Positions 12,263 through 41,466 of a stretch of 62,497 bases of DNA are shown piece by piece. Position 1 is the stretch's first letter. Every line of letters begins with the position of its first letter. Below the pieces are notes generated by a model that worked only from the letters and a program-made list of their open reading frames with translations, did not search any database and was not told the DNA's origin. The stretch covers positions 1 to 62,497 of the forward strand of contig PFDB01000016.1 in NCBI GenBank assembly GCA_002763075.1. The letters run 5' to 3'. Source of the stretch: Candidatus Pacearchaeota archaeon CG10_big_fil_rev_8_21_14_0_10_34_76 (GTDB lineage: Archaea > Nanobdellota > Nanobdellia > Pacearchaeales > GW2011-AR1). Both the position numbers and the translations under genes were made by a program.

Positions 12263-12861
12263 TTTAATTCAACAAAACTTTCAATCTGATTGCAACTTAA
12301 AGTTTCGAAAATACCCTCCCTAAATCCATAAATATCCCTTATAATTTTTATTTTTTCCATATATTCTTCTGCATTCAGATTTATCTTGCTATTTGCATCT
12401 TTGCTAGGCACTGGAATTTTTAACCCCGAGTTGTGTGGAGCCTTCACCTTTCCAGGCCTATAAGAAAAGCAATATGCCTTCTTGCAACTCAGTTTTCCTT
12501 CATTTACAAGCTCGTTCACAGCATTATGTATTTCAATATGCCTTATATGACCATACTCTCCATTTTTACCGTGTGTAAAGATATAATCAAAATCTTTTCT
12601 CTTCAATTTTTTCATGATTTTATTTTTCAGATCTAAAAGAGAGATCGGATGTAGTTTATCGTCTTCCAAATCAGAAATCATTGCCTTTGCACCATAGTGC
12701 TTACACACTTTCTTAAACTTAGGCATTCTATCAGAATCATTCTGTCTGCAAAGAGAGAAGATTGTCCAATTCCAATTAGGGTTCTTAAGTATCATTCCTC
12801 CCATCCAAATCGTCTCGTCATCTGGATGAGCAACCACGCACAATGCATTAATCATGATCAA
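12259..12861 (-). CDS. PIG-L/LmbE-family N-acetylglucosaminyl deacetylase
   Basis: VVAHPDDETIWMGG zinc-site motif. 4-nt overlap with the GT gene. Confidence 0.8.
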   Translation of the reverse strand: MIMINALCVVAHPDDETIWMGGMILKNPNWNWTIFSLCRQNDSDRMPKFKKVCKHYGAKAMISDLEDDKLHPISLLDLKNKIMKKLKRKDFDYIFTHGKNGEYGHIRHIEIHNAVNELVNEGKLSCKKAYCFSYRPGKVKAPHNSGLKIPVPSKDANSKINLNAEEYMEKIKIIRDIYGFREGIFETLSCNQIESFVELK

Positions 12862-12875
12862 GGATGTAAAATTTT

Positions 12876-13628: not shown

Positions 13629-13713
13629 CCTCTTTCATGACAACTCTAATCATCTGTTCTATTTAAGATTAATCTAGCAAAAGATTTTTAATCTCTAGCT
13701 TCTTCTAATAGCC

Positions 13714-17737: not shown

Positions 17738-18520
17738 ATGAAGAGTATGATTTATGTAAAAAAGATGGATGGCAGACTTCAGCCATATGATGAAAACAAA
17801 CTACGTCGCTCTCTAAAAAAATCTGGAGCTAGTAAAGAAACAATTAAGGATATCCTTTCAAAAGTTGATTCAATTCTTTATAATGGTATTGAAACAAAAA
17901 AACTTTTCAAATTTATTTTCCAAGAGCTCAACAAATGTAGTCCTAACTGCTCTCCAAGATATAATCTAAAACAGGCAATTATCTCTCTTGGATTTGAAGG
18001 AGGATTCGTTTTTGAAAAATTTATGGGAAAGCTTTTTGAAAAAAAAGGATATGATGTCAAATTAAATCAGATTGTCAGAGGAAAAAACATATCCCATGAA
18101 ATTGATGTTATAGCAATTAAAGATAAGGATAGGATAATGATTGAAGCAAAGCACCATGGAAAACCCTGGCTTGGAACGGATATCCAAACGGCACTATATG
18201 TCTATGCTCGTTTCCTCGATACCAATAATTCTTTTACGAGACCTATGCTTGTTACAAATACAAGATTCTCAACATCTGTCATGCGATATGCAAAGGGCGT
18301 TAATCTCTCATTAATGGGCTGGAAATACCCTAAGGGAAATAGTCTTGAAGAAAATATAGAAAAATATAAAATTTATCCAATAACTGTTCTGAATCTTCCT
18401 GAGGTTGTCCTAAAAAGATATTTTGAAAAAGACATTATAACCTTAGAAGACCTGCAAGCAACTAGGAAACTATCTCCAGAAGAAAAAGACAAAATAAACA
18501 AAATTATGTACCCTTCCTAA
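17738..18520 (+). CDS. ATP-cone domain fused to Mrr-like restriction endonuclease domain
   Basis: The N-terminus VKKMDGRLQPYDENKLRRSL looks like an ATP-cone. The middle FEKFMGKLFEKKGYDV...HEIDVIA...IMIEAKHH fits the D...(E/Q)xK Mrr_cat pattern. Confidence 0.6.
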   Translation: MKSMIYVKKMDGRLQPYDENKLRRSLKKSGASKETIKDILSKVDSILYNGIETKKLFKFIFQELNKCSPNCSPRYNLKQAIISLGFEGGFVFEKFMGKLFEKKGYDVKLNQIVRGKNISHEIDVIAIKDKDRIMIEAKHHGKPWLGTDIQTALYVYARFLDTNNSFTRPMLVTNTRFSTSVMRYAKGVNLSLMGWKYPKGNSLEENIEKYKIYPITVLNLPEVVLKRYFEKDIITLEDLQATRKLSPEEKDKINKIMYPS

Positions 18521-19660
18521 TCAATTATTCCTAAAATGGTGACTAATGTAGGATACAAGAGAACTCCCTGAAAGCCTTGTACTTGAAGGACCATTTCTCA
18601 CATAGAACTCTTCTTCGTTCGCTCCCCTCAAGAAAACTGGCCTCCTACTACTTTTACATTCAACCTTCAGAACAGACATTTCGTGCACTTGAACTATCTC
18701 GAATTTTATAAAAGGCAGATACTCACTACCTATATCTCTTTTTATAAGGTTTGTGAAATGCAGGACAAGCTTGTCTTGACTTGAAAAATTATCTTTTTCT
18801 ATTCCAATCAATTCTTTATCATCAGATACTCCTATCAATAAGACTCCTCCTCTTGAATTCAAATATGCTGTAATGGTCTTAAGAGCCGAATGTTCTACCT
18901 TTCTATCTACCTCATTAGTATGTAAATTAACTCTCAATGTAGATTTAAACTCCAGAATCTCGCTTTCACCTTTTTTTATCATATTCATCACCATTTCAGA
19001 AGAATCTGCCCTATCCGGATTAAAAAATCTTGAATTCCCTTCAACTAGTTTCGTAATAAACGTACTAACAACATTCATTCTTCCATTTTTTATATAAAAG
19101 TATCCTGCAACTGAAACAAGAAATGCTCCAAGACTATTAAATATCAGATCACCCATTGTGTCTGAAGGCATTGATTTTTGGAGATTAAACCCAAAGATAC
19201 TATCTAATCCATATTCAAATATCTCCCACACACTTCCAATAGCAACAGCAAATGCAAATGCAAAAAATACTATAATCATCGGACTGGCGTTTATCTTATC
19301 ATCCTTGTAAAGCACATACATAAGTGTAAGCCCTATAAAACCCAACGCAATTGCAGAGACAAAATTTAGTAGAATATCCCACCACCAAAATTCATCAAAA
19401 AGGCCTCTTACTTCTCCGAGATAAAGAACCCCGTATATGAAAAATAATATCAATATCTCATATTTTGCAGGAACTTCCATATTAAACCATTTTTCAAGAA
19501 CATATGGAAGAAAAGTCAATGTAAATCCTACAAGAGAAATATACATAACAAGTATTCTCTGCTCATATATTGCTCCAAAAAAGGCAAGAACGAGCATAAC
19601 TCTAATGATATTTATAACAATAAATCTCACCCTTCCAGGAGATTCTTTCCGCTCAGCCAT
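18521..19660 (-). CDS. polytopic membrane protein with C-terminal AlbA_2 (Schlafen-like) domain
   Basis: About 6 TM helices over roughly the first 200 aa. Then ESEILEFKSTL...LKTITAYLNSRGGVLLIGVSDDKELIGI, typical of AlbA_2. Confidence 0.55.
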   Translation of the reverse strand: MAERKESPGRVRFIVINIIRVMLVLAFFGAIYEQRILVMYISLVGFTLTFLPYVLEKWFNMEVPAKYEILILFFIYGVLYLGEVRGLFDEFWWWDILLNFVSAIALGFIGLTLMYVLYKDDKINASPMIIVFFAFAFAVAIGSVWEIFEYGLDSIFGFNLQKSMPSDTMGDLIFNSLGAFLVSVAGYFYIKNGRMNVVSTFITKLVEGNSRFFNPDRADSSEMVMNMIKKGESEILEFKSTLRVNLHTNEVDRKVEHSALKTITAYLNSRGGVLLIGVSDDKELIGIEKDNFSSQDKLVLHFTNLIKRDIGSEYLPFIKFEIVQVHEMSVLKVECKSSRRPVFLRGANEEEFYVRNGPSSTRLSGSSLVSYISHHFRNN

Positions 19661-19774
19661 AAAATATCAAGCAGACAGTAATTTATATAATATTCGCAAT
19701 TAATTTTAGTACACACAGATTTAAAAACTGCCATTTTCTTTCAATTCTGACAGAGCTATATCTGTTTCTTAAAA

Positions 19775-21136
19775 ATGGAAAAATTTAAAGCACTTGGACT
19801 GAATAAGAAAATGATTTCCGTACTTGAAGAGCTAAAATTCACAGAACCAAGTGAAATCCAAGAACAAACAATTCCTCTTGTTCTAGCAGGAAAAGATGTT
19901 ATAGGAAATGCATCAACAGGTTCTGGAAAAACACTTGCATTTGCATCTGCAATAGTCCAAAATTTAACGCCTGGTGCAGGCATCCAAGCCCTAGTTTTAA
20001 CTCCAACAAGAGAGCTTGCAGAACAGATAACTGGAGTAACAAAAAAATTCGCAACAAATACTGGCCTTAATATACAAGAAGTATACGGGGGTGTCTCGAT
20101 TGAGAACCAGATAAAGAAACTAGGAAAAGCAGATGTCATAATAGGCACTCCAGGAAGAGTTTTAGATCATTTAGAAAGAAGGACTATGGAATTATTTGAA
20201 CTTAAAATTCTTGTCTTGGATGAAGCAGATAGAATGGTAGACATGGGATTTCTTCCAGATGTAGAAAGAATAATCAAACAATGCCCAATAAAAAGACAAA
20301 CACTTTTGTTTTCAGCAACAACTTCTCCTGATGTACAATACATAGAGAGTAGATATATGAAAAGTCCAACTGTTGTGACAGTCACCCAATATGTCGATTC
20401 TTCAAAGCTCCAGCAATGTTATTATGATTCTCCAAGCTATATGAAATTCTCTCTTTTAGTTCACCTTTTGAAAAAAGAGAAATCAGGCATTGTAATGGTC
20501 TTTTGTAACACTAGAAAAAATGTTGATCTTATTGTTGCAAACCTAAAAAGATTTGGGCTTCCAGCACACGCAATCCATGGGGGATTGACTCAAAGCAAAA
20601 GAAATTTTGTAATGGATAAATTCCGTAAGGATGAAGCAGAGATATTAGTATGTACTGATGTTGCTGCCCGTGGACTCGATTTAAAGGGAGTCACACACGT
20701 CTATAATTATGATATCCCCGGAAAAGCAGATGAATATATCCATCGCATCGGAAGAACAGCAAGAGCAGGAAAAGAAGGGATGGCAGTCAACATAGTCACA
20801 GATAAAGATTATGATAACTTCAGAAGGGTAATGATGAATGACTCATTTAAAATAGAGAGAATTGAGTTCCCAAATGATGTGGAGAAGCTTGCTCCAAGTT
20901 TTAAAGATCAAGGATATGGAAAAATTGGTGGAAATAAAAGATTCTACAAAGGTGAAAGAACTTACAATCCGAATAGACAAAGGTTTCAATCTGGAAACGG
21001 CTATGCTGGAAACAGAGACCGAAGACAGGGTAGCAGTTATGGTGGAAGCAACGGCAGAAGAGATAGTCATAACAGCAGAGATAGAGGATCTAGACCATTT
21101 TCAAGAACTGGGAATCGAAGACACTCACAAAATTAA
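19775..21136 (+). CDS. DEAD-box RNA helicase with Arg/Gly/Ser-rich C-terminal tail
   Basis: Q motif, ASTGSGKT, PTRELA, VLDEADRM, SAT and HRIGRTARAG. The tail reads GNRDRRQGSSYGGSNGRRDSHNSRDRGSR. Confidence 0.92.
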   Translation: MEKFKALGLNKKMISVLEELKFTEPSEIQEQTIPLVLAGKDVIGNASTGSGKTLAFASAIVQNLTPGAGIQALVLTPTRELAEQITGVTKKFATNTGLNIQEVYGGVSIENQIKKLGKADVIIGTPGRVLDHLERRTMELFELKILVLDEADRMVDMGFLPDVERIIKQCPIKRQTLLFSATTSPDVQYIESRYMKSPTVVTVTQYVDSSKLQQCYYDSPSYMKFSLLVHLLKKEKSGIVMVFCNTRKNVDLIVANLKRFGLPAHAIHGGLTQSKRNFVMDKFRKDEAEILVCTDVAARGLDLKGVTHVYNYDIPGKADEYIHRIGRTARAGKEGMAVNIVTDKDYDNFRRVMMNDSFKIERIEFPNDVEKLAPSFKDQGYGKIGGNKRFYKGERTYNPNRQRFQSGNGYAGNRDRRQGSSYGGSNGRRDSHNSRDRGSRPFSRTGNRRHSQN

Positions 21137-21255
21137 GAGCATCGCAAATCAAAAAGTTATTGACTAATTCTTACTATGCCCAAATTAAGGATACCTCAGA
21201 TTACACTATCTATTTACCTAATCAAATTTATATTGCATTCTTCTCGCAACTCAGT

Positions 21256-21381
21256 TTAATAGGATTCTTTCTTTGATTCAGAACTAGAATCACCTTCTCT
21301 TCTTAACCTTTCTTTTAGGGCTTTGTATTCTGCAAGTTTCCTATCATACTCGGGGTCAACAAATTCAGTTGGTCTTGCCAT
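21256..21381 (-). CDS. possible 41-aa charged micro-protein
   Basis: Own translation: MARPTEFVDPEYDRKLAEYKALKERLRREGDSSSESKKESY. It is below the ORF-track length cutoff and no homology is recognisable. Confidence 0.25.
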   Translation of the reverse strand: MARPTEFVDPEYDRKLAEYKALKERLRREGDSSSESKKESY

Positions 21382-21500
21382 AATCTATCTTACAAAATAT
21401 CCTATTAAAACATTTCTAGTCTGCATTAGTCATATGCATTTTACCTTTCAAACAAATAATTTAGGTAAAACTATTTAATACCTTAATATTAACCAAGATA

Positions 21501-22319
21501 ATGGTGATAAATAAAGAGAAGAAGATTAAATTTAATCTCTCTCCATCTAGCTTGAATACATATTTCCAAAGCCCTTTATTATTCTATTTGAAATATATTG
21601 CAAAAGTCCCAGATGACACAAAAGTTCCTGTTTGTTATGGCCTTTCTGGAAACATAGTTCACAATTGTCTTGAAAAATACTCTAAAAAACAAATATCAAG
21701 AGATGAAGCATACATGCTCTTAATGTCTGAATGGCAGGAAAAAAACCTGCACTACCATCCAGATATAAAAAACCAGCCATTGAACTCACAAGATTATCTC
21801 TCAGCTCTTATCAAAGGATTACAAATAGTAGACCAGCATGAAAATCATGTATGTGAAGAGACAATACAATTCCCTGCACTATCAAACGATAAAATGGAAA
21901 TAGGAGTAAAGGGAATAATTGACCTTCAAGCTACAGAAAAATCTACTGGTGAAAATGTAATAATAGACTACAAAACAAGCAACAGTGTTAGTCAGGGAAA
22001 GGAATTTGAACGCCAAGCACTTTTCTATAACTATCTCGTCCACAAGAAAAAAAACATTCTCCCAACAAAGACAGTATTTCACTACCTCAAGCTTAATATT
22101 CCAAAAACATACAATTTCTCAGAAATTCAAGTCAAATCATTTGAAAAAGAAATCTACTCGGTATCTGAAAAAATCTTAGAATACGGAACAGATATTGGAA
22201 GTTATCCTATTGGGAATATAGAAGACCTATTCAATAGTAAAAAGCGCGCATGTGAAGAAGAACTCCAACGCCGAATGGGTTTTAGCAACATCAGAAAATT
22301 TGTACAAATGCGATTCTGA
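21501..22319 (+). CDS. PD-(D/E)XK (RecB/Cas4-like) nuclease superfamily protein
   Basis: N-terminal SPSSLNTYFQSPLLFYLKYI and core GIIDLQA...VIIDYKTS (D...D/ExK) motifs. There is no C-terminal Cys cluster. Confidence 0.55.
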   Translation: MVINKEKKIKFNLSPSSLNTYFQSPLLFYLKYIAKVPDDTKVPVCYGLSGNIVHNCLEKYSKKQISRDEAYMLLMSEWQEKNLHYHPDIKNQPLNSQDYLSALIKGLQIVDQHENHVCEETIQFPALSNDKMEIGVKGIIDLQATEKSTGENVIIDYKTSNSVSQGKEFERQALFYNYLVHKKKNILPTKTVFHYLKLNIPKTYNFSEIQVKSFEKEIYSVSEKILEYGTDIGSYPIGNIEDLFNSKKRACEEELQRRMGFSNIRKFVQMRF

Positions 22320-29315: not shown

Positions 29316-29911
29316 ATCCATTTTTGGTTTTAGAGGGAGTAGATGCAGCAGGAAAGACAACTGTAGGAAATAGGTTAGCTCAAATCATGCCAGCACGTTA
29401 CTTTAAGACTCCCGGAGATGAATTCGCATCAATGAGGGAATATATAGATGATCATGCTCCGCCTCCTTCAAAATTACTTTTCTACCTTTCTAGTGTAGTT
29501 GACGTCTCAGCCAGAATAGGATCTGCTCTCGAAAATAGTCCTGCAATCTGCGATAGGTATATTTGGAGTACTCTTGTTCCTCATGCAGCTTATCATGGAG
29601 AAAATTTAGAAGAATTAGAATGCATTTGGAGACCATTAGTTAAAAATCTTGTTCAGCCAGACCATGTCATTCTTCTGCAAGTTAGTGAAGAAGAGCAATT
29701 ACGAAGATTGCATTTAGCTGAGAGAATTAATGGAAAGCAAAGTGCAAGCGATAGATTCTGTTTAAACACTGAGACAAGAAGAAGAGTTCGAGGATTGTAT
29801 GATTCTGTTGCGGAAAGAGAAGGATGGCTGAAAATAGACACAACTCATAAAAGTGTAGAAGAAGTCATTGAAGAAATAAATTCAAGATTTTCTTTAGGAG
29901 TTTTAGCATGA
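29312..29911 (+). CDS. thymidylate-kinase-like P-loop (d)NMP kinase
   Basis: LVLEGVDAAGKTT P-loop, DRYIWS (the DRY motif of the Tmk family), and a lid-like RRLHLAER. ATGA overlap with the CYTH stop. Confidence 0.8.
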   Translation: MNPFLVLEGVDAAGKTTVGNRLAQIMPARYFKTPGDEFASMREYIDDHAPPPSKLLFYLSSVVDVSARIGSALENSPAICDRYIWSTLVPHAAYHGENLEELECIWRPLVKNLVQPDHVILLQVSEEEQLRRLHLAERINGKQSASDRFCLNTETRRRVRGLYDSVAEREGWLKIDTTHKSVEEVIEEINSRFSLGVLA

Positions 29912-30393
29912 TGAAACATAACAAAAAAGAATTAATTGAACGATTAATAGGGCAGATAGTTGCTAAAAGCAATAATATGGCAGAAGCAGCAGAAGACGCC
30001 AGACAGTTATCTATATCTGCACCAGGAAGAAATCAAAGCAGATATGATTCTTCGAAAGAGGAATTTGGATATTTAGCTGATGGTCTTAACATTAGGAGTC
30101 AAGAGATTGCGAGCGGTATTGGAATGATAAGGGCCGCATTTTTTCCTGATAGACCTGAAACAGTTGTGCAAGGAAGCTTAGTCAGGGTTGAGGAAGGATC
30201 GGGCAGACATTCAGATTATCTTATTCTGCCTTACGGTGGAGGTGAATTCATTGAAACAAATGAAGGAGATGTTGATGTTATTACTCCTTCAGCCCCATTA
30301 TGCGAAGCAATGATAGGCAAAAGAATCGGAGAAGAATTTTCTTTTTCAGCCAGAGACAAGCAAAGAACTTATCGAATTGAAGATATTGCCTAG
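29908..30393 (+). CDS. GreA/GreB/Rnk-like protein (Gre C-terminal domain)
   Basis: C-terminal GSLVRVEEGSG...DYLILPYGGGE...VITPSAPLCEAMIGKRIGEEFSF...YRIEDI follows the Gre C-terminal domain pattern (IS..SPlg.AliGk..Gd). The N-terminus is predicted helical. ATGA overlap with the kinase stop. Confidence 0.6.
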   Translation: MMKHNKKELIERLIGQIVAKSNNMAEAAEDARQLSISAPGRNQSRYDSSKEEFGYLADGLNIRSQEIASGIGMIRAAFFPDRPETVVQGSLVRVEEGSGRHSDYLILPYGGGEFIETNEGDVDVITPSAPLCEAMIGKRIGEEFSFSARDKQRTYRIEDIA

Positions 30394-30421: not shown

Positions 30422-30706
30422 GTGCACGAAAAAGATAAAGAATTATCATCGTACCTCAAGCCAAGAGAAGTTTTCAACATAAAGGGACCTGTAACTTATA
30501 GGGAGAGTCTAAAGGCATGGAGCACAATCCACATGAAAAAGGAGATTCTTGATATATTCCCACAGCTAAAGGAAAGGCGTGCCAAATTTGAATATACTAT
30601 GCATTATAATAGGTCTCCCAAGGATCTAAAGAAAATCCTCGACAAGCTTGAAAAAGACGAGGTTGTGCCTATTTTGCTTTTGTTTGAAAAGAGAAAGGAG
30701 AAATAG
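30422..30706 (+). CDS. hypothetical small basic protein
   Basis: GTG-initiated ORF 15 nt downstream of an AGGAGG at 30401-30406. No motif recognised. Confidence 0.35.
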   Translation: MHEKDKELSSYLKPREVFNIKGPVTYRESLKAWSTIHMKKEILDIFPQLKERRAKFEYTMHYNRSPKDLKKILDKLEKDEVVPILLLFEKRKEK

Positions 30707-30741
30707 AAAGCATTTTTAAGGTATATTTGATTAGTTTCAAT

Positions 30742-32448
30742 ATGAGTTTAAGAGGGGATTATGAGAATTGGTCTAAAAATGAATTAGTGAAGGAACTAAA
30801 AAAACTAAAGAAAAGGAAAAAATATGGTATTGTCTGGGAAGATAAGCCTGAACAGGTAGCTGAATTATGCAAGGAAAAACTGCCTATTCTTGAAGAAGAT
30901 AAAAAGAAAGAAATTAAGACAGATGATAAAAAACCTGTTAATATTCTAATTGAAGGGGATAATTACCATGCCTTATCAGTTTTGAATTACACTCATAAAG
31001 GCAAAATTGATGTTATCTATATTGATCCACCTTATAATACTGGGGCTAAAACTTGGAAATACAATAATGATTATGTTGAAAAGGAGGATACTTGGAGACA
31101 TAGCAAATGGCTTTCTTTTATGGAAAAAAGATTAAAACTTACAAGAAAGCTATTAACCAATAAAGGTTTTCTTATCTGTGCTATTGATGCAAATGAATTA
31201 TTCTCATTGGGGTTACTCTTGGATGAGATTTATGGAGAACAAAATAGGGTCGGATTAGTTACAGTTATACATAATCCAAAAGGGAGAAATCTATCTAAAT
31301 TTTTTTCAGAAAATAGTGAATTTATGCTGATATATGCTAAAAATATATCAATCGCAAGTTTCAATGATGTTGTGATTGATGAAGAAAAGCAAGCAACCTT
31401 TAATATGAATGATGAAAATGGCAAATATAGACTTGAACCATTTATGAGAGTAAGAACTTCTTGGTCAAGGAAAAATAAACCTAAAAATTATTATCCCATC
31501 TATGTTAGTAAAAATCTAAAAGAATTAACTCTTGAAAAAAAGAAGGATTACTATGAGATTTACCCAAAGACAAAAGATGGAAGAGAATGGGCATGGAAAA
31601 ATATACCCTCCTCTTTCAATAATCTGAATCTAAATTCTTATTTTGTTGCAATTAGAGAAGATGATGAAATTAAAATATTACATAAATACCGAGAAAAACA
31701 AGTATTCAAAAACGTATGGACTAGTAAAAAATACCAATCTGAATTTCATGGAACTAATGTATTAAAAAAACTTCTTGGAAAGAATGTATTTGAATATCCC
31801 AAATCTGTGCATCTAGTCGAAGACATAATTAAAATAACTTCAAAAAAAAACTCAACGATTTTGGATTTTTTTGCTGGTTCGGGGACAACTGCCCATTCCG
31901 TTTTAGAGTTAAATAAGGAAGATGATGGGAACAGAAAATTTATTTTATGTACTAATAATGAGAATAATAATGGAAATGGTGGAGAGGGAATAATGGAGGG
32001 AGTTTGTTATCCTCGTGTTAAGAAAGTTATAGAAAACTTAGAGAAAGAATCCAAAGGAAAATTAATCTCTAATAGGCCTAGTGGATTAAAATACTTCAAA
32101 ACTGATTTTGTGGATGCAGATCCAACAGACAAAAACAAAAAGAAGCTGGTTGATAAGTCCACAGAAATGCTTTGTCTTAAAGAAGATTGTTTTGATGAAG
32201 TAAAGAAAGGTAAGGATTTTAATTTATTCAAAAATTCAGAAGATACTCATTTAGGAATAATTTATAGTGATGATGGAATTGAGCCATTTAAGAAAGAGAT
32301 TAAAAAAATGGGGAAGAAGTTTATAACTTATGTTTTCTCTCTTGATGAAAGTGCAAGAGAAGAAGAATTTGAAGATGTAGCTGATTTGGTTGAATTGAGG
32401 CCAATACCTGCAGTTATATTAAATGTCTATAAGAGAATATTCAAATGA
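30742..32448 (+). CDS. mod: type III restriction-modification methyltransferase (Mod; N6A/N4C beta-class)
   Basis: DVIYIDPPYNTG (motif IV) lies upstream of ILDFFAGSGTTAH (motif I). The ORF track begins at TTG 30727, but ATG 30742 is more likely. Confidence 0.88.
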   Translation: MSLRGDYENWSKNELVKELKKLKKRKKYGIVWEDKPEQVAELCKEKLPILEEDKKKEIKTDDKKPVNILIEGDNYHALSVLNYTHKGKIDVIYIDPPYNTGAKTWKYNNDYVEKEDTWRHSKWLSFMEKRLKLTRKLLTNKGFLICAIDANELFSLGLLLDEIYGEQNRVGLVTVIHNPKGRNLSKFFSENSEFMLIYAKNISIASFNDVVIDEEKQATFNMNDENGKYRLEPFMRVRTSWSRKNKPKNYYPIYVSKNLKELTLEKKKDYYEIYPKTKDGREWAWKNIPSSFNNLNLNSYFVAIREDDEIKILHKYREKQVFKNVWTSKKYQSEFHGTNVLKKLLGKNVFEYPKSVHLVEDIIKITSKKNSTILDFFAGSGTTAHSVLELNKEDDGNRKFILCTNNENNNGNGGEGIMEGVCYPRVKKVIENLEKESKGKLISNRPSGLKYFKTDFVDADPTDKNKKKLVDKSTEMLCLKEDCFDEVKKGKDFNLFKNSEDTHLGIIYSDDGIEPFKKEIKKMGKKFITYVFSLDESAREEEFEDVADLVELRPIPAVILNVYKRIFK

Positions 32449-33293
32449 ATTTAAGAGAAACCGCTTTAGAATGGAGAATTGTTGATCCTTATAATCCCGT
32501 ATTTATTACACATTTAAATTACATCAAATGTTTTAAAAAACTTTCAGATGGATTGAATGTAGAATCAAATAGGCTTGACAAATCTAATAAGAAGGCTAAT
32601 AAAAAATTAATTAGTAAAATTTCATTAATCAAATTAATCAAAAAAAGTTTAGATAGGGAATATAAAGCTTGTCAAGAAAGCAAGGATTTTGCTGAAGTTT
32701 CTTCTATTTGGGTTCCAGTAAAAGCTTATTATCTTGTATTCAATCTCTTTTTAGTCTTAGATTATTTAATAAGCCCGGGGAATCATAAGAATTTTAATAT
32801 TTCACACAAATCCTTAACCTTGAGAATAAAAGAATTAATAAGAAAATCAGAGTTAATATTTAATAAATCTCATTTTAACCATTTATACACCTATGAAGAA
32901 GTAAAAGATGTTAAATTTGATAAAGGAGAAAATTTAAGGGAAGAACAAGACACCGAAAAATTAACCAAACGCTTAATAAAAAAACTTATTGAATATAAAA
33001 TAGAAGAATTTAAGAGAGAAAATAAAATAAAAGATTTAAGAAAGAAAAAAGAAAGGTTAAAACTTTCAGAATACTTATCAAAAGAGCTTACAAATTTGTT
33101 TGAATTATTTTATTTGTTTAGGATAAAAACAAATTACAGAGATTTAGATTTTTTAAAAGAAGATGTGGGTTCAACTCAGTTCTATAATTATTTTGAAAAT
33201 TATTATTTGGCTACAATTAACTTTTATGAAGTATTAAAAAGTTTAATAAATGAATTATCTCAAAAGAGATTTAATGAGGAATTAATCAAATGA
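32445..33293 (+). CDS. uncharacterised helical protein embedded between mod and res
   Basis: ATGA overlaps at both ends (32445-32448 and 33290-33293). Lys/Glu-rich and all-helical in appearance, with conserved-looking segments WVPVKAYYLVFN and FRIKTNYRDLDF. No catalytic motif identified. Confidence 0.6.
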   Translation: MNLRETALEWRIVDPYNPVFITHLNYIKCFKKLSDGLNVESNRLDKSNKKANKKLISKISLIKLIKKSLDREYKACQESKDFAEVSSIWVPVKAYYLVFNLFLVLDYLISPGNHKNFNISHKSLTLRIKELIRKSELIFNKSHFNHLYTYEEVKDVKFDKGENLREEQDTEKLTKRLIKKLIEYKIEEFKRENKIKDLRKKKERLKLSEYLSKELTNLFELFYLFRIKTNYRDLDFLKEDVGSTQFYNYFENYYLATINFYEVLKSLINELSQKRFNEELIK

Positions 33294-35467
33294 TACAATT
33301 AAAGGATTACCAAACACGAGCAGTTGAAAGTCTTAAGTTTAAAGTACATAATGCCTTAAGGAGTCCGGACAGAGAAGTTGTTATTTTTCAATCACCAACA
33401 GGAAGCGGTAAAACAATCATGGTTTCTGAAATGTTAAAACAATTAGTTAAAGATAACGACAAAAAATATGCTTTTGTTTGGGTTAGTGTTAGAATGTTGC
33501 ACGAGCAAAGTAAAGAGAAACTAGAAAAATACTACGAAGATGATAGGTTAATCCAGTGTTCTTATTTTGAAGATTTAGAAGATAACCAAATTGGAGATAA
33601 TGAAATATTATTCATAAATTGGCATAGTATTAACAAAAAAGACATTAACATTTATGTTAGGGATAACGAACAAGACAATAACTTAAATTCTATTGTTGAA
33701 AATACAAAAGAAGAAGGCAGAGAAATAATTTTAATTATAGATGAAAGCCACCATACAGCAAGTTCAACTAAATCTAAAGAATTAATTGAAACAATAGGGC
33801 CTAAAGTCACTATTGAAGTTTCAGCTACTCCACACTTAAAAGAAAACGTTTCAGAAATAGAGAAAGTTCATTTAGCAGATGTAAAAGCTGAAGAAATGAT
33901 TAAGTCAGAGATTTCTGTAAATCCAGAGTTCTTAGATATTAAAGTCGGAGATAAAAGTTCAGATGTTTTAGTAATAGAACAGGCCTTAAAGAAGAGAGAG
34001 GAATTAGCAAAACTTTACAAAAAGGAAAACTCAAATATTAACCCTTTAGTCTTAATTCAATTACCAGATAGTAGAGTTAATTTAATCAGTAAGAAGGATG
34101 AAGTTATCAAAATCCTAAAAGATAAATTCAAGATTACAGAAGAAAACGGAAAATTGGCGGTGTGGTTATCGGAAGAGAAAACCAATAATCTGGCAAATAT
34201 TGAAAAACCGGATAATGAAGTTGAGGTTTTAATTTTCAAGCAGGCCATAGCTTTAGGATGGGATTGTCCAAGAGCATCAATTTTAGTTATATTCAGAGAA
34301 TCTAAGAGCTTTACTTTTACTATTCAAACAATAGGTAGAATTATGAGGATGCCAGAATTAGAATATTACAATCATGAAGATTTGAATAAAGGTTTTGTTT
34401 TTACAAATCTGCCAAATATAGAAATTACAGAAGATTACGCAAAGGATTATATTACTCTTTACGAAGCTAAAAGAGATAATTCTAAATACAAAAACATAGC
34501 TTTACCTTCTGTTTATCTGAAAAGGCAAAGAGAAAGAACAAGACTCTCCGGAGAATTTGCTAAAATATTCATGGAGGTGGCAGAAGAAACTAGTCTAAAG
34601 AAAAAAATAAACTTAGAACCCTCTAAAGTTGTAAGCCCTATTATTGCAGACGGTAAGATTGTAAATATCGATAAAGCTGGAGAAATTGAGCATAAAGGCC
34701 AAATTCAAGTTAAACTTAATGAAGTAGAATTACAGCAGAGGTTTGATCAATTCATTTATGCTAATTGTTCACCTTATGCACCCGCTGATTCAAGTGATAG
34801 GATGAAAACAGCAATTTATCAATTCTTTAATGCAAAATACAAATTACCAAAATTTGATTCAAGAGTTCAAAGAATAGTTCTAGGAAAAGAAAATGTTCAG
34901 GCCTTAGTAGATGTTATTAATTTATCAAAAGAAAAATACAAATTAAAAATTGTTGAGAAATTAAGCGAAGTTAGGGAGAAAATTGAAGAGCCAAGATGGG
35001 AAGTCCCTTTAATTGACTCATACAAGAGCAATGCAAAGAAAGAAAACCACCCTAAATCCGTAATGCAACCATTTTATACTAAAAAACCAAGCCAACCAGA
35101 AGTATTATTTATGGAATTATTGGATAAATCCAATAAAGTTGAGTGGTGGTATAAAAATGGAGAAGGAGAAAAGAAATATTTTGCAGTTTTGTACAAGGAT
35201 GAGAATAACAAAGAATGGGCTTTTTATGTAGACTTTATTGTTAAATTCAAAGACGGAAAAATAGGTCTATTTGATACTAAAGGCGGAATGACTGCAAAAG
35301 ATGCAGGTCCAAGAGCAGAAGGATTACAGGAATACATTAAGAAAAATAAAGATAAACTTTGGGGAGGTATCACTATTTATGAAAATGGATCGTGGAGATA
35401 TAATGATCTAGAGAAGTATGAGTATAACTCTAATAATTTGTCAAGTTGGAAGATTTTAGAGCTTTAA
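33290..35467 (+). CDS. res: type III restriction enzyme Res subunit (SF2 helicase plus C-terminal PD-(D/E)XK nuclease)
   Basis: FQSPTGSGKT (motif I), LIIDESHH (motif II), QTIGRIMR (motif VI). The C-terminal YVDFIVKF...GLFDTKG is nuclease-like. Confidence 0.85.
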   Translation: MIQLKDYQTRAVESLKFKVHNALRSPDREVVIFQSPTGSGKTIMVSEMLKQLVKDNDKKYAFVWVSVRMLHEQSKEKLEKYYEDDRLIQCSYFEDLEDNQIGDNEILFINWHSINKKDINIYVRDNEQDNNLNSIVENTKEEGREIILIIDESHHTASSTKSKELIETIGPKVTIEVSATPHLKENVSEIEKVHLADVKAEEMIKSEISVNPEFLDIKVGDKSSDVLVIEQALKKREELAKLYKKENSNINPLVLIQLPDSRVNLISKKDEVIKILKDKFKITEENGKLAVWLSEEKTNNLANIEKPDNEVEVLIFKQAIALGWDCPRASILVIFRESKSFTFTIQTIGRIMRMPELEYYNHEDLNKGFVFTNLPNIEITEDYAKDYITLYEAKRDNSKYKNIALPSVYLKRQRERTRLSGEFAKIFMEVAEETSLKKKINLEPSKVVSPIIADGKIVNIDKAGEIEHKGQIQVKLNEVELQQRFDQFIYANCSPYAPADSSDRMKTAIYQFFNAKYKLPKFDSRVQRIVLGKENVQALVDVINLSKEKYKLKIVEKLSEVREKIEEPRWEVPLIDSYKSNAKKENHPKSVMQPFYTKKPSQPEVLFMELLDKSNKVEWWYKNGEGEKKYFAVLYKDENNKEWAFYVDFIVKFKDGKIGLFDTKGGMTAKDAGPRAEGLQEYIKKNKDKLWGGITIYENGSWRYNDLEKYEYNSNNLSSWKILEL

Positions 35468-35521: not shown

Positions 35522-36838
35522 ATGGAAAAAGAGGCTCCTGCAAGAGACCATTTATTTATTAGTTATGCTACAGAGGATGCACATTTTGCAGAATGGTTAA
35601 CCCTTAAACTTACAGCAGAAGGATATAAAGTATGGTGTGATAGGTTCAAACTTCTTGGAGGAGAACCATACCCCCAAGATATAGATACAGCGATAAAAAA
35701 TAAAACATTTAGAGTTATAGCTCTTCTTTCAAATCACTCCATAAAAAAGGATAATCCTGTAAAAGAGAGAACGCTAGCCATGAATCTGGGAAAAGAAAGA
35801 GAAGAAACGGATTTTCTTATTCCTCTGAATATCGGCGGATTAAAACCTACAGAAATGGATTGGATGCTAAATAATTTAACATATATTCCTTTTCACTCTA
35901 ATTGGGCAGATGGCCTAAAACGATTATTAAAAAAGCTTAATGAAATCAATGCACCCAGATTATTACAAAAAGGAAGAAATATTGCTTCTCAAACATTTCT
36001 TAATGATCTATCTGGAAATATAGAAGTCGCATTTGAAACCTTACATTCAAATATATTTCAATTTACAAAAATTCCTTCTTTTGTATATAAAATAAAACTT
36101 AGCCAACCTTATGAGTGGTATGAACTAAGAAGATTGCTAGACATATGGCCTCATCGTTATGTTAATCAAGTAACTCTTTTATCCTTTCAGCATCCTCCAG
36201 AAGAAGTAATGAGTGATCTCGCAATAAATAAAATTGAACAGATTAATTGGCAAGAAAGTAGCGAGATCGAGAGCATTCCAACTAAAAATCTTATAAAGGA
36301 GTTATTGCTAAAATCCTTAGAAACTAAAGGGATAGAACTTGGATTAAAAAGAGATCAGAAAAGAAGATTATACTTCCCTAAAGGGCTGTTTGAAAGTAAT
36401 AACTTGCTTTACAAGGACTATTCTGGCAAAAATACTTTCACAGCATATATAGGGTTTAGAAATAGAACTCATCCTGGCAGGGAATATGATTATCATCTCT
36501 CTCCAAGATTTACGATAAGAGAAGGGGAATCTGATAATTTCTTCTTACAGCTAGGAGTTCAGTTATATTTAACGAATAAAGATGGAGCACCATTAAGGGG
36601 CAAGACTATTTTGAGAAGAAGAAAAAATTTATGTAAGAATTGGTGGAATTCACAATGGTTCAGTAAGCACGCAGCCATATCTCACTTTCTGAGCGAAGGC
36701 TCGGATGAGATATTAATTGGGCAAGAAAGTTCGACGCAGATAAAGTTATCAAATAGTGTCTTGAAGTTTCAATCACCTGTAAGAATAGTTGAACAACAAT
36801 TAGCTGAAGATAAACTTGAGGAAGTAGAAAATGACTGA
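35522..36838 (+). CDS. TIR-APAZ protein (SPARTA effector subunit)
   Basis: N-terminal TIR (HLFISYATEDAHFAEWLTLKL...VWCDRFKLLGGEPY...ALLSNHS). About 290 aa of C-terminus has the size expected for APAZ. It overlaps the pAgo gene by 8 nt. Confidence 0.82.
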   Translation: MEKEAPARDHLFISYATEDAHFAEWLTLKLTAEGYKVWCDRFKLLGGEPYPQDIDTAIKNKTFRVIALLSNHSIKKDNPVKERTLAMNLGKEREETDFLIPLNIGGLKPTEMDWMLNNLTYIPFHSNWADGLKRLLKKLNEINAPRLLQKGRNIASQTFLNDLSGNIEVAFETLHSNIFQFTKIPSFVYKIKLSQPYEWYELRRLLDIWPHRYVNQVTLLSFQHPPEEVMSDLAINKIEQINWQESSEIESIPTKNLIKELLLKSLETKGIELGLKRDQKRRLYFPKGLFESNNLLYKDYSGKNTFTAYIGFRNRTHPGREYDYHLSPRFTIREGESDNFFLQLGVQLYLTNKDGAPLRGKTILRRRKNLCKNWWNSQWFSKHAAISHFLSEGSDEILIGQESSTQIKLSNSVLKFQSPVRIVEQQLAEDKLEEVEND

Positions 36839-38333
36839 TTATGAAGTAAACCTTTTTTCTGAACCTCTTCTTGAATTTGCTCATGGGCAGAGGCTTCAAG
36901 ATCCGCATGATGGTCTCTCACTATTCGGCCCTTGTGATTTTGATACAGCAACACAACCAAAAAAAATAAGATATGGTCTAATTGGAACCGATCAGGGAGT
37001 TTCTCTTTTCAAAAAATGGGCTGATAAAATGAATGGTCCTATTTTTTCATCAGAAAATAATTCTCGTATTTGGCCTCCCTTTCCTGGTTTTGAAGCTGCA
37101 TTTCATAGTGAATTAGCTAAAGAACCTTCTTGGGAATATGGACTTGATAAAAATGAATTAATTAAGGATGCTTCAAACAACAACCCGTATCAAAGATCTT
37201 TTGATGTCGTTAATAGATATTTGGAAGGAATAGAAATTGCTGCTAAAAAGAGGGATGACAAAGTTGAAGTGGTTATTTGTGTTGTCCCAGATGAAGTCTA
37301 TAAAAGTTGTAAACCTAAATCTTATATTATTAATGGCTGGGGTAGAAAGCCCACAAGGAAAGAAATCAATCAATTTCAAAGAGGACAAAGAACGTTATTT
37401 TCAGAGAGATCCAATAAAATGTATGATCTTTCTGTTGATTTCAGGAGACAATTAAAAGCACAAGTTATGCAGTACAATTTACCTGTTCAGATAGTTAGAG
37501 AATCGACACTTAAACCTGAAATAGAAGGAGAATGGAGAAGAGGTCTAACTTGTGAATCGGATCTTGCATGGAACTTATCCACTGCTTTGTATTATAAAGC
37601 TGGAGGAAAGCCATGGAAACTTTCATCAGCTAGAGATGGAGTATGTTATATTGGAATAGCATTTAAGAATACTGGCCAAGGAGAAAATTCAAAAACCGCT
37701 ACTTGCGCTGCCCAGATGTTTCTTAATTCTGGAGAAGGAATAGTATTCTTGGGAGATGAGGGACCTTGGTATTCTACGGTTAACCAACAATATCATCTAA
37801 ATAAAGAATCTGCGAAAAAGCTATTAAAGGGTATTCTAGAAACTTATAAGGCACTAGACGGAAAAGATTTAACAGAGATATTTATTCATTCTAGATCCGA
37901 AGTCAATCGAGAAGAAATTGAAGGTTATCTGGAGGCTTGTCCTGTCAACTCTAAACTGACTATAATAAGGGTAAAAATGGAAAGGGATGGTATAAGGCTG
38001 TTTAGGGAAGGTAAGATGCCAATACTAAGAGGAACATTTCTTAAACAAAATTTTAAAACAGGTTTCCTTTGGGGATCTGGATTCAAACCTCGTCTTAATA
38101 CCTATGATGGTTGGGAGGTTCCAGTTCCCCTCAGGATAGACATCTTATATGGGGATTCTTCTATCGAACAAGTCTCCAAAGATATATTCGGTTTAACTAA
38201 GTTGAATTATAATGCATGTAAGATAGGAGATGTTGAGCCTGTAACTGTTAAATTTTCAGATGCTGTCGGAGAAATTTTAATTTCTAATAAGGCTATTGGA
38301 AAAACAGACCCTAGATTTAAATTTTATATTTAA
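36831..38333 (+). CDS. short prokaryotic Argonaute (MID-PIWI only, catalytically inactive)
   Basis: 500 aa, so no room for N/PAZ domains. MID-like DFRRQLKAQ...PVQIVRES and the PIWI hallmark LYYKAGGKPWKL. Catalytic-strand positions read YIGIAF and IHSRS rather than Asp-containing motifs. Confidence 0.88.
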   Translation: MTDYEVNLFSEPLLEFAHGQRLQDPHDGLSLFGPCDFDTATQPKKIRYGLIGTDQGVSLFKKWADKMNGPIFSSENNSRIWPPFPGFEAAFHSELAKEPSWEYGLDKNELIKDASNNNPYQRSFDVVNRYLEGIEIAAKKRDDKVEVVICVVPDEVYKSCKPKSYIINGWGRKPTRKEINQFQRGQRTLFSERSNKMYDLSVDFRRQLKAQVMQYNLPVQIVRESTLKPEIEGEWRRGLTCESDLAWNLSTALYYKAGGKPWKLSSARDGVCYIGIAFKNTGQGENSKTATCAAQMFLNSGEGIVFLGDEGPWYSTVNQQYHLNKESAKKLLKGILETYKALDGKDLTEIFIHSRSEVNREEIEGYLEACPVNSKLTIIRVKMERDGIRLFREGKMPILRGTFLKQNFKTGFLWGSGFKPRLNTYDGWEVPVPLRIDILYGDSSIEQVSKDIFGLTKLNYNACKIGDVEPVTVKFSDAVGEILISNKAIGKTDPRFKFYI

Positions 38334-39505
38334 ATTCCATCCATTTTGAGATAGGAAGCTCCATGAAGTCTTAAGACCATCTCTTTCACTTTCCTAAAAT
38401 CTTTATTCTCTTCTTCAAGAGCCCTAATCCTATCCGAGAGTATCTCTCTCTCTTTCTCGGATTTGAGCAGCATCCTTTCTATCTCCGTTTTGGTCAAATC
38501 AATTAACATATCTTCTTCTGAAATCGTGTCTTTCATGCCTAGGAGCTCTGAGTAATAATGAATTTTATCACTCTTTTTCCAACCGAAGCGGTATTTCAGG
38601 GCAGATTCGGATTTATATCTAGGAAGCCAATAACAGCATGAAATATGCCTGAAATCATACATTGTCAGATTAGAATACTTTTCCCCTGCAAGTGAGACTT
38701 TCTCGCCGAAAGTTTTTTTTGCAAGCCTTTTTAGATACTCATTTGTTCTTCCTGGCGTAATAGGAAAAACGTAATCTTCAGGGCTTAGTTTCTTGCCAAG
38801 TATGTATTCTTTTATTAAATCAGAACAAATCATTAATTTGATTCTCCTTCCAAAAGTTTTGCTTATCTCATCTCTTATATTCAACTCCTTAAAGTCATTA
38901 TAAAAATCTGACACCTTAATGTTTATGAGTTCACCAGGAGATCTGATTCCTGTATCAAAAAGAAACATCATTAGAATCTTATAATTTGGCTTGGCGTTAT
39001 CACATAAAGTCTTTACTTCTCTTTCAGTAAGATAGACCCATGCTGGTTTTTCAGCCCTTGTATCCAAATCAACAGTAATGTCTGGAATTTCTACGCCTTT
39101 TTTCTTACTAATTTTCTGGTGCCAGTGCCAAAAAGCTTTGAAAATTTTTCCAGAGGTAGCAATTGATTGATAATCCCTTCCATCTTGTCTTTTAATAATC
39201 CCATTCTTCATATCAGCAAAAAAGCTAATTAACTGCTCTTCATTTATATCTGTTATTTTATTAACACCATACAATTCTTCAAACCGCTTCGAGAAAGAAA
39301 TCATTTTTTCACGCAAGGAATTAAGCCGAGTATAGCTTCTTGTGCCCTTAACACTCGCAACAGCTACATTAAGGCCTCTTTCCATATCATTTAGGTAATT
39401 CATGACTATCTCTGAATTTTGGGCAGAGATGCCTGGAATTCCCTGACTAACGCTTTTCTTCCATGCAAGGTAGCGTTCTTTATGTTTATAGGGGTCTATT
39501 TTCAT
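38330..39505 (-). CDS. int: tyrosine recombinase / integrase
   Basis: DTGIRSPGEL (Arg I), MYDFRHISCCYW (H-x-x-R box II equivalent), DKIHYYSE (Tyr region). Its stop overlaps the pAgo stop within TTAA at 38330-38333. Confidence 0.85.
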   Translation of the reverse strand: MKIDPYKHKERYLAWKKSVSQGIPGISAQNSEIVMNYLNDMERGLNVAVASVKGTRSYTRLNSLREKMISFSKRFEELYGVNKITDINEEQLISFFADMKNGIIKRQDGRDYQSIATSGKIFKAFWHWHQKISKKKGVEIPDITVDLDTRAEKPAWVYLTEREVKTLCDNAKPNYKILMMFLFDTGIRSPGELINIKVSDFYNDFKELNIRDEISKTFGRRIKLMICSDLIKEYILGKKLSPEDYVFPITPGRTNEYLKRLAKKTFGEKVSLAGEKYSNLTMYDFRHISCCYWLPRYKSESALKYRFGWKKSDKIHYYSELLGMKDTISEEDMLIDLTKTEIERMLLKSEKEREILSDRIRALEEENKDFRKVKEMVLRLHGASYLKMDGI

Positions 39506-39590: not shown

Positions 39591-39731
39591 CGCCCCAACC
39601 GGGGATCGAACCCGGATCTTCGCCGTTCTGCGACACATGGTGTCTCTCCATTTTCAGGAGGTTGACCTTGAAGGAACCTAGGTTCCTTAAGTCGCGACAG
39701 GGCGATGTACTAACCACTATACTATTGAGGC
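39591..39731 (-). tRNA. tRNA-Asp (GUC) with a 69-nt intron in the anticodon loop
   Basis: Manual fold. Acceptor GCCUCAA/UUGGGGC; D arm GUAU-AGUGGUUA-GUAC; anticodon stem UCGCC/GGCGA with loop CUGUCGC; T arm CCGGG-UUCGAUC-CCCGG. Discriminator G; CCA not encoded. Insert lies at 37/38. Confidence 0.85.
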
Positions 39732-39879: not shown

Positions 39880-40299
39880 ATGATTAGAGACATGGAAGTT
39901 AGAAATGAAAGAGGACGAACAAAAGAAGAGTGGAACAAAAGATACATTGGTTCTCTTAGGAGAGGTTGGATGATAGGTGGAATAGGTGCATTAACATTTG
40001 TAGGCGCTACAACATATGATCTTTGTTTTAAACCAGGTAGCCCATCAATATCATTTCAGAGCTCCAATGAAACAAATAGTGTGGAATCTACTAGAGGATC
40101 TGAAAGTGACCTAGAAACTCCAAATTATAATGGAATCCAGTTAGAAATGAGTCCTGGGGATGTAGTAAAATATGGTGTTGGTGGAATGGAAATCTTTCTT
40201 GGGTCAATCGGACTGGCCTTGGTTTCCCATCAAATCACAAAGCGAAGAATTGGTTCAGATATATGGGATTATTCAGGAAGAGCACAAAATCATTCTTAA
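39880..40299 (+). CDS. hypothetical two-TM protein
   Basis: Two hydrophobic segments, GWMIGGIGALTFVGATTY and GGMEIFLGSIGLALV. Confidence 0.4.
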   Translation: MIRDMEVRNERGRTKEEWNKRYIGSLRRGWMIGGIGALTFVGATTYDLCFKPGSPSISFQSSNETNSVESTRGSESDLETPNYNGIQLEMSPGDVVKYGVGGMEIFLGSIGLALVSHQITKRRIGSDIWDYSGRAQNHS

Positions 40300-40364: not shown

Positions 40365-41303
40365 CTACTTTAACATTTTACTAAATTCCTTGTACTCCTT
40401 AAGCATAAGTTCCATGGTGGGTCTTAGGTCCTTTCTTTTCTGATATGCTTGTAAAGACTCATAATATTCCCTAACATTTTTCAACTGAATATTAATTGGA
40501 GGCAAACTATGTTTTATTAAAATATTGTTCATTAGCAATCTTCCTACCCTCCCATTCCCGTCAGCAAACGGATGAATTATCTCAAACTGATTATGAACAA
40601 CAGCTGCTAAAATTAAAGCGGAATACCTATTCCTATGTTTGTCATACCACTCAATTAACTCTTTCAGCAGAGATCTAACTCTTGAAGCTGGAGCTCCCTC
40701 ATGAACAATCTCACCACTTTTTGTTTTAATAACAACTTCCTCTCCCTCTTCCCTAAATCGTCCTGCAAAATTCTTAGAGTTTTTAAAAACAATTTCGTGC
40801 ATTTTTCTAATCAAATCAATGGAAATATGTTCCTTTGTTTTTCTGATATATTTTATAGCTTCATCAACCCCATAAGCTTCAGCAATATCTGATTTTGATT
40901 TTTTCTCTGGCCATTTATCCTCTTCCAGAATTTCTTTAACTTCGCCTCTAGTAAGTTCGCTTCCCTCTATTGCGTTTGTATTATATGTAAAAAGCTCAGA
41001 AAATTTTTCCCAATTTTTTTCAGACAAATGAGTTATTTTAAAATCTATTTTAGCCTCAATTTTCTTAACAAATCCTATTTCTCTTTTACTAAGTTCTTTA
41101 TCTAATGGATTTTGGATTATCTTGTGCTGATTAATCTCATCAAAAATCAATTTTTTAGCAATTTCATTTCTTTCATCAAGAAGCCCTGGAGACAAATTAG
41201 ATCCCAAAAACTTCCTTATTTTATGAACTTTTCCACCTTCTCTAAAAGAGTGAGCTAAATAGTATTTTGTCTTGCTTCCTACCTTTCTTTTTTCTAAGTG
41301 CAT
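40365..41303 (-). CDS. Fic-domain protein (class II, with intramolecular inhibitory helix)
   Basis: Canonical HPFADGNGRVGR Fic motif. Upstream TNAIEG matches the (S/T)xxxE(G/N) auto-inhibitory motif. Confidence 0.9.
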   Translation of the reverse strand: MHLEKRKVGSKTKYYLAHSFREGGKVHKIRKFLGSNLSPGLLDERNEIAKKLIFDEINQHKIIQNPLDKELSKREIGFVKKIEAKIDFKITHLSEKNWEKFSELFTYNTNAIEGSELTRGEVKEILEEDKWPEKKSKSDIAEAYGVDEAIKYIRKTKEHISIDLIRKMHEIVFKNSKNFAGRFREEGEEVVIKTKSGEIVHEGAPASRVRSLLKELIEWYDKHRNRYSALILAAVVHNQFEIIHPFADGNGRVGRLLMNNILIKHSLPPINIQLKNVREYYESLQAYQKRKDLRPTMELMLKEYKEFSKMLK

Positions 41304-41361: not shown

Positions 41362-41376
41362 CTATACTATTGAGGC
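41362..41376 (-). repeat. 15-nt duplicate of the 5' end of tRNA-Asp (identical to 39717-39731)
   Basis: CTATACTATTGAGGC on the plus strand at both positions, which is tRNA nt 1-15 on the minus strand. Flanking bases differ. Confidence 0.75.
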
Positions 41377-41466
41377 TACAAACCTCCAGCGGGTTTCTAG
41401 GAGTTCCAGCAACCCACAAAAGGATAACTTATTACAGAAATCTGGTTTTTTAAGCACTACATCTAT

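Follow-up and report, generated by a model that had tools for sequence, protein, structure and literature searches.

The stretch of DNA analysed here, contig PFDB01000016.1 (62,497 nucleotides, numbered along its forward strand and called the window below), carries a pair of overlapping plus-strand genes with the layout of a SPARTA system, that is, a short prokaryotic Argonaute (pAgo) encoded together with a TIR-APAZ protein. The first gene (35522–36838) encodes the TIR-APAZ protein of 438 residues and the second (36831–38333) a pAgo of 500 residues ending in ...FKFYI; both open reading frames (ORFs) are intact. The stop of the first gene and the start of the second overlap by 8 nt (36831–36838, plus strand, ATGACTGA), from which we infer that the two are translationally coupled. 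An earlier note on this DNA, made from the sequence alone, had described the two ORFs, their overlap and several peptides, and all are as described, with FISYATEDAHFAEWL, LYYKAGGKPWKL, YIGIAF, IHSRS and DFRRQLKAQ all found in the translated pair. Chance is excluded for the pair by full-length profile matches with E-values of 1e-70 and 1e-173. Of the 80 best related loci in GTDB species representatives, the set to which our counts of related loci refer, 77 have the gene for a TIR-APAZ homologue immediately ahead of the pAgo gene, and across these 77 loci, bacterial and archaeal, an 8-nt overlap is the commonest arrangement of the two genes. The idea that the overlap is a sign of genome compaction in DPANN archaea was rejected, since it is also the commonest arrangement among the bacterial members. 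Directly upstream of the pair lies a type III-like restriction-modification (RM) operon on the same strand (30727–35467), and a gene for a tyrosine recombinase, or integrase, of 391 residues (38330–39505, minus strand) converges on the pAgo gene from the other side.

The N-terminal TIR domain proposed for the first protein is borne out by a Pfam TIR_2 match to residues 12–136 (1.1e-21), and the remaining ~290 residues, which the earlier note had likened to APAZ on account of their size, prove to be APAZ (approximately residues 150–420), as judged from profile matches, from alignment with TIR-APAZ chains of known structure and from the predicted fold. The PADLOC profile Aga_TIR-PNTD1-PNTD2 matches residues 7–429 of 438 (1.5e-70), and phmmer aligns residues 7–428 with the SPARTA chains 8qlo_A, 8fex_A and 8sp0_A, BabSPARTA and MapSPARTA among them, at E-values of 1e-23 to 1e-25. 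An AlphaFold2 model based on 42 homologues has a mean predicted local distance difference test score of 87.3, with disorder confined to residues 1–3 and 427–438. When this model was compared with the PDB using Foldseek, the best 32 matches were all TIR-APAZ chains of BabSPARTA, CrtSPARTA or MapSPARTA (E 1e-28 to 1e-18), and the APAZ-only chains of SPARTA, SPARDA and SPARHA superpose on it at 4–5 Å. The global TM-score is just ~0.46, presumably because the isolated chain was modelled with a different relative orientation of TIR and APAZ. The catalytic glutamate of the TIR domain is E82 (codon 35765–35767), which aligns with E77 of 8ifk_A and does not vary among the 42 homologues; in the characterised TIR-APAZ protein, where the residue is E77 in Map/CrtTIR-APAZ, the E77A substitution leads to loss of NADase activity (PMC9097488). 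Past the APAZ alignment the protein ends in a tail (residues 421–438, RIVEQQLAEDKLEEVEND) in which 7 of the 18 residues are Asp or Glu (39%) and which is disordered in the model. The autoinhibitory acidic tails of S2-clade systems are reported to be 16–46 residues long with 21–45% Asp/Glu (PMC10899771), and the present tail, as read from its sequence, falls inside this range for both length and acidity. The tail of the closest relative, at a locus that we call L138, is acidic too, with a different sequence.

There is no Pfam match for the 500-residue pAgo. The PADLOC profile pAgo_I matches it from residue 5 to residue 500 (3.6e-173), and phmmer aligns residues 8–500 end to end with the 507-residue SPARTA chains 8ifk_B, 8fex_B and 8qlo_B (E ~1e-107, ~40% identity); matches to the other types of short pAgo are far weaker, at 1e-51 for SPARHA, 5e-43 for SPARDA and 2e-19 for SPARSA. 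The full-length alignment to SPARTA pAgo chains upholds the description of this protein as an Argonaute consisting of MID and PIWI alone, without N or PAZ domains, and the PADLOC profiles, one of the checks that had been proposed, agree with the alignments to solved SPARTA structures in placing the pair in the SPARTA class. The earlier note had further held that the residues needed for slicing were absent. As a reference for the catalytic tetrad we took the sequence of TtAgo, from plasmid pTT27, in which D478, E512, D546 and D660 were confirmed. An hhalign comparison of the pAgo-clade profile with TtAgo (E 5.5e-05) covers residues 204–459 against TtAgo 417–642, reproduces GFD478AGG and LLRD546G, and places K279, Y321 and R355 opposite D478, E512 and D546; across 21 family members the three columns hold R or K, F or Y, and R, respectively. 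TtAgo D660 lies outside the aligned region, so D477 is assigned to the fourth position by motif spacing only (PAPLHLAD vs EPVTVKFSD), with D, N or E there in the family. With substitutions at three of its four positions the DEDX tetrad is broken, and the claim of a lost slicer tetrad stands.

In characterised SPARTA the 5′-phosphate of the guide is contacted by H207, K211 and a divalent cation, and F245 and H251 stack on guide nucleotide 2 (bioRxiv 10.1101/2023.07.14.549122). A look at this pocket around DFRRQLKAQ, which the earlier note had advised, gives a divided answer: a lysine, K209, is kept at the K211 position, but H207 is replaced by R205. The motif reads D203-F-R205-R206-Q-L-K209, with R205-R206 standing where characterised SPARTAs have H207-D208, and in the same alignment F245 and H251 correspond to G238 and D244. 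The pAgo subfamily shows no variation at R205, R206, K209, Q220, G238, D244 or the C-terminal I500. To judge from these alignments, the basic MID pocket is kept, with an Arg-Arg signature and without the pair that stacks on guide nucleotide 2.

The closest relative, L138, shares 79% nucleotide identity with the pair, and 84% (TIR-APAZ) and 90% (pAgo) amino-acid identity. The ratios of nonsynonymous to synonymous substitution rates (dN/dS) against it are 0.063 for TIR-APAZ and 0.033 for pAgo, approximate values with dS near saturation, and at least six samples yielded contigs in which the two ORFs are intact and do not differ. All the hallmarks of SPARTA that lend themselves to a test in the sequence are present, bar the exact signature of the MID pocket (His to Arg). 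Observed here are the architecture, the TIR-APAZ fold, a conserved TIR glutamate, a slicer tetrad that has been lost, an acidic tail, the action of purifying selection and the assignment of the host, and we consider it very probable that the pair is a functional clade S2A SPARTA carried on the chromosome of a Nanoarchaeota-type DPANN archaeon.

The systems closest in kind are MapSPARTA, CrtSPARTA and BabSPARTA, all of clade S2A. Their operons likewise consist of two genes, TIR-APAZ being followed by a MID-PIWI pAgo, and each protein can be aligned with its counterpart over the full length. They and the present pair have in common the predicted TIR-APAZ fold, the TIR glutamate, the pocket lysine, the C-terminal ...YI and the acidic tail, and all have lost DEDX. 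They differ in sequence (~40% identity for pAgo, ~23% for TIR-APAZ), in having His-Asp, F245 and H251 where the present pAgo has R205-R206, G238 and D244, and in their bacterial hosts, the present host being archaeal. To our knowledge, SPARTA has been characterised only in bacteria. SPARDA, SPARHA and SPARSA resemble the pair in combining an inactive short pAgo with an APAZ partner, whose chains superpose as described above, but their effectors are DREN nuclease-, HNH- or SIR2-APAZ proteins where here there is TIR, and the similarity of the pAgos is far lower. The SiAgo system of Sulfolobus islandicus (clade S2B) is another archaeal abortive-infection system built on a short pAgo (PMC11788926), but its partners are different, namely Aga1 and the membrane effector Aga2, and it is not known to have a TIR domain. 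Among the matches of the pAgo to solved structures at E ≤ 0.001, none bears the name SiAgo. TtAgo, a long catalytic pAgo, has an alignable MID-PIWI core, and is set apart by the N and PAZ domains and the three catalytic residues that the present protein lacks.

By analogy with the characterised systems, the overlapping genes would give rise to a heterodimer of TIR-APAZ and pAgo, kept inactive by contact between TIR and MID and by the acidic tail (PMC9097488; PMC10899771). The 5′ phosphate of a small guide would be held in the MID pocket by R205, K209 and the C-terminal carboxylate with a divalent cation, and the guide itself would probably be RNA, derived from highly transcribed DNA of an invader. 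Pairing of the guide with complementary single-stranded DNA (ssDNA) would displace the acidic tail and the PIWI sensor loop, upon which heterodimers would tetramerise, form composite TIR active sites and hydrolyse NAD(P)+; the loss of NAD(P)+ would then halt or kill the invaded cell, the outcome known as abortive infection. Two considerations weigh against taking the pair for a functional SPARTA of this kind. The NADase activity, the kind of guide, the formation of a heterodimer and the defence phenotype are extrapolated from homologues, at ~40% identity for pAgo and ~23% for TIR-APAZ, and the MID pocket departs from that of characterised SPARTAs at R205, G238 and D244, so that the preference for guides may differ.

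Several features of the window bear on the nature of the host. The best named relatives of its SerRS, 67–75% identical, come from metagenome-assembled genomes of Nanoarchaeota, Pacearchaeota, Woesearchaeota and Nanoarchaeia, and housekeeping genes (PGK, GAPDH, Rpe, Tmk, ThyA, IMPDH and SerRS) are dispersed through the window. The gene for tRNA-Asp(GUC) (39591–39731, minus strand) is split into exon 1 (39731–39695) and exon 2 (39625–39591) by an intron (39694–39626). Rfam scores it at 52.2 bits and finds 72 nt inserted in the anticodon loop; the fold, a cloverleaf plus a 4-bp helix between two 3-nt bulges, defines an intron of 69 nt at the canonical 37/38 site. A bulge-helix-bulge intron at this site is the archaeal arrangement. 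Contigs of other community members carry an intronless tRNA-Asp, joined at 39619/39693. ARAGORN in bacterial mode reported no tRNA in the whole window, and so missed this intron-bearing gene. The SerRS relatives, the tRNA intron and the spread of housekeeping genes together support a DPANN-type archaeal host, in agreement with the earlier note. The contig recurs across groundwater and aquifer metagenomes.

That note had also named the host among the points deserving attention, and here its claim holds only in part, for the host is archaeal but less exceptional than was implied. There are more than 3400 homologues of the pAgo; the top five matches are all archaeal, as are 14 of the 80 best loci, which come from Halobacteriota, Methanomassiliicoccales, Thermoplasmata, ANME-1, Methanosarcinales, three Micrarchaeota and Anstonellaceae, and a TIR-APAZ protein from Nanoarchaeia with 41% identity is already in NCBI. 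An archaeal host is thus not very unusual for SPARTA, with close relatives in at least 14 archaeal species representatives. Our literature search found no paper pairing TIR-APAZ with Nanoarchaeota. According to published surveys, known defence systems are scarcest in DPANN archaea, where RM and CRISPR are under-represented but SoFic and AbiE are found enriched (PMC12988326; PMC11291487). The phylogenetic placement that had been recommended was carried out with a neighbour-joining tree, in which the pAgo groups with that of L138 with 100% bootstrap, and the two are joined by P0002 with 84%. The separate archaeal clade suggested by the topology has a bootstrap of only 20–28%, and we do not claim it. 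An apparent swapping of partners, with TIR-APAZ relatives at 81–84% identity and pAgo relatives at no more than 61%, was also rejected: the partner pAgos are 89–90% identical and had been concealed in the query's own 90% cluster. Homologues of the pAgo at 34–40% identity are encoded on 102 sequenced plasmids, about half of them predicted to be conjugative; these plasmids belong chiefly to Rhizobiales and Sphingomonadaceae, and to Haloarcula and Halorarius too.

The genomic settings of the closest relatives indicate how the pair travels. The 79% nucleotide identity to L138 and to a further locus, L142, is restricted to positions 35543–38342 of the window, the two-gene block. In L138–L141 this block stands between EF-2 and EF-1alpha of another archaeon, next to a methyltransferase of 300 residues and a ParE/MazE pair. 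In L142 it follows another type III Mod/Res pair and a DUF2779 gene, and in the next relative, P0002/L144 (61% identity), the pair is found near Prim-Pol and a TraC/VirB4-like ATPase, a setting that suggests a conjugative or integrative plasmid. Because the same block occurs in three unrelated contexts, in the window, in L138–L141 and in L142, each time beside a different methyltransferase or RM system, we conclude that the two-gene cassette moves as a unit among low-GC archaeal genomes and lands repeatedly by DNA methyltransferase or RM genes. Two of these loci hold further genes. In L138 the pair and its neighbours (7826–14485) form a defence islet inserted into a neighbourhood of core translation genes, by RpoA, S12 and S7, which also includes an unknown protein of 391 residues, DUF1428 and DUF1801, and in L144 (650–11509) the gene for a UvrD-family helicase overlaps the pAgo stop and is followed by GmrSD, Prim-Pol and the ATPase.

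Among the alternatives, the one that survives best concerns the vehicle: SPARTA and the RM operon together could be the cargo of an integrative element, inserted at the 3′ end of the tRNA-Asp gene by the adjacent tyrosine recombinase and able to excise. We regard this as a real possibility, though not the one we would favour. The recombinase is recognised by Pfam Phage_integrase (4.4e-09), the XerA-like family of NCBIfam (2.7e-10) and PHROG integrase families (7e-16). Its gene is downstream of the tRNA, starting 85 nt from the tRNA 3′ end (39591), and lies stop to stop with the pAgo gene; an integrase beside the 3′ end of a tRNA gene is the classical arrangement of an island. The GC content falls to 27% at 32–34 kb. 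A related population in the metagenome run that we call X8 has both flanks, 16.4–26.0 kb at 92–96% identity and 39.57–44.5 kb (from 39572) at 98%, and nothing that matches 26.3–38.5 kb apart from a diverged integrase, which is seen in short patches at equal depth. The X8 contigs, however, are not physically linked, and the population carries this diverged integrase as its own. On the SPARTA side there is neither a repeat of the 3′ part of the tRNA (≥20 nt with ≤3 mismatches) nor any other direct repeat of the kind expected of attachment (att) sites: searching that side for att repeats of the tRNA and scanning 29.8–41.6 kb for repeats in general gave nothing above chance-level matches, and the tRNA 3′ part is not copied anywhere in the window. 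A homologue of the integrase is found in none of the 80 related loci and in none of the three closest ones, nor were relatives of it found among viral contigs. At 34.6%, the GC content of the SPARTA block matches the genome average of 34.0%. No joint that marks excision or a skipped island was seen in contigs of eight groundwater runs, the joints listed being short k-mer matches from integrases and methyltransferases of other organisms. A comparison with empty sites anchored on the flanking IMPDH gene found metagenome relatives that are just 61–70% identical and share no common synteny.

The earlier note had read mobility of the module from its position against the integrase. The adjacency is as it described, and the stop codons do overlap, with the pAgo stop TAA at 38331–38333 and the minus-strand integrase stop at 38330–38332 sharing TTAA at 38330–38333; this overlap shows tight packing only and does not imply mobility. 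That the module is mobile follows instead from its three unrelated contexts, and a tie to this particular integrase is spoken against by the missing att repeat and by the 80 loci without a homologue. We describe the pair as one cassette of a strain-variable defence region beside tRNA-Asp, together with the type III-like RM operon, the integrase and a SoFic-like Fic gene.

The RM operon consists of three plus-strand genes whose start and stop codons overlap: an N6/N4 DNA methyltransferase (30727–32448; Pfam N6_N4_Mtase 1.4e-29), a protein of 282 residues with no detectable family (32445–33293), and, after it, a restriction subunit of the ResIII/DEAD helicase type (33290–35467; Pfam ResIII 4.6e-24, PADLOC REase_III 2.5e-15). 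An ORF of 94 residues (30422–30706, plus strand) lies ahead of it, and the RM region is where the GC content of the window is lowest. Further upstream, a plus-strand gene for a protein of 161 residues (29908–30393) has a GreA/GreB C-terminal domain (Pfam, 29.9 bits against a cut-off of 26.9), a domain of bacterial-type transcript-cleavage factors found here in an archaeal genome. A second defence-like cluster (17738–22319) comprises a protein with an ATP-cone and an Mrr_cat nuclease domain (17738–18520), a Schlafen AlbA_2 protein (18521–19660), a DEAD-box helicase (19775–21136) and a PD-(D/E)XK nuclease (21501–22319).

On the other side of the tRNA lies the gene for a Fic-domain protein (40365–41303, minus strand), a defence candidate resembling SoFic and PDC-S04 (Pfam Fic 1.2e-20; PADLOC SoFic 1.2e-35, PDC-S04 2.2e-35). 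A scan for exact matches, together with local alignment, turned up an exact 15-nt copy of the 5′ end of tRNA-Asp (GCCTCAATAGTATAG; 41362–41376, minus strand, matching 39731–39717); ~0.04 such matches would be expected by chance. It is the only tRNA repeat found. The two copies (39717–39731 and 41362–41376) form a direct repeat that brackets ORF139 (39880–40299) and the Fic gene, not SPARTA, as if a segment had inserted into the 5′ part of the tRNA-Asp gene, on the side opposite the integrase. In X8 there is one mismatch in the distal copy, and other sequence takes the place of the ORF139 region. The 15-nt repeat is abutted by a 38-nt stretch (41377–41414, minus strand GGTTGCTGGAACTCCTAGAAACCCGCTGGAGGTTTGTA) whose depth in the source metagenome is 13–17 times that of the genome, and which recurs with 0–2 mismatches in contigs of very different depth with unrelated flanks on either side. 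It matches no Rfam family and gives no ARAGORN match, and it has no second copy in the window and none in viral contigs.

A second alternative accepts the descent of the pair and questions its working: a system derived from SPARTA could have a different input or output, with DNA or 5′-OH guides or with a TIR domain that makes a signalling nucleotide. The replacement of H207-D208 by R205-R206 and of F245 and H251 by G238 and D244, all invariant in the subfamily, fits this idea, as does the distance of the subfamily from characterised SPARTA pAgos (just ~40% identity). K209, Q220 and the C-terminal ...FYI are nevertheless kept, so a pocket for a 5′-phosphate would still be expected; the TIR glutamate and the TIR-APAZ fold agree with SPARTAs that hydrolyse NAD, and the related loci have no additional effector gene conserved beside the pair. 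We consider such a departure unlikely. That the pair is an inactive remnant of horizontally acquired DNA, a thought that the reported scarcity of defence in DPANN genomes might encourage, is very improbable in view of ORFs that are intact and the same in contigs of at least six samples, dN/dS values of 0.03–0.06 against a relative with near-saturated synonymous sites, and the retention of every catalytic and pocket residue that is invariant in the family.

In conclusion, the pair is very probably a functional SPARTA; the system class is one already known, and understanding of the class is unchanged. What is modestly new is that the host belongs to the DPANN archaea, that the pair lies together with a type III-like RM operon and a SoFic-like gene round a single tRNA, and that the cassette is shuffled among low-GC archaeal genomes. 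A divergent SPARTA of this kind, with ~40% identity to those characterised and an altered MID pocket, would be useful for comparative biochemistry or for diagnostics engineering. More speculatively, the pair, with its relatives L138 and P0002, might belong to a distinct sublineage of SPARTA, spread as a self-contained cassette among low-GC archaea of the DPANN type, whose remodelled MID pocket might alter guide preference or activation threshold relative to bacterial SPARTAs. If this rather doubtful proposal were true, the sublineage would stand for a form of abortive infection through NAD depletion that is adapted to episymbiotic cells of minimal metabolism. A complete and selectively maintained SPARTA in a defence-poor DPANN lineage provides a data point on how symbionts with minimal genomes acquire immunity.

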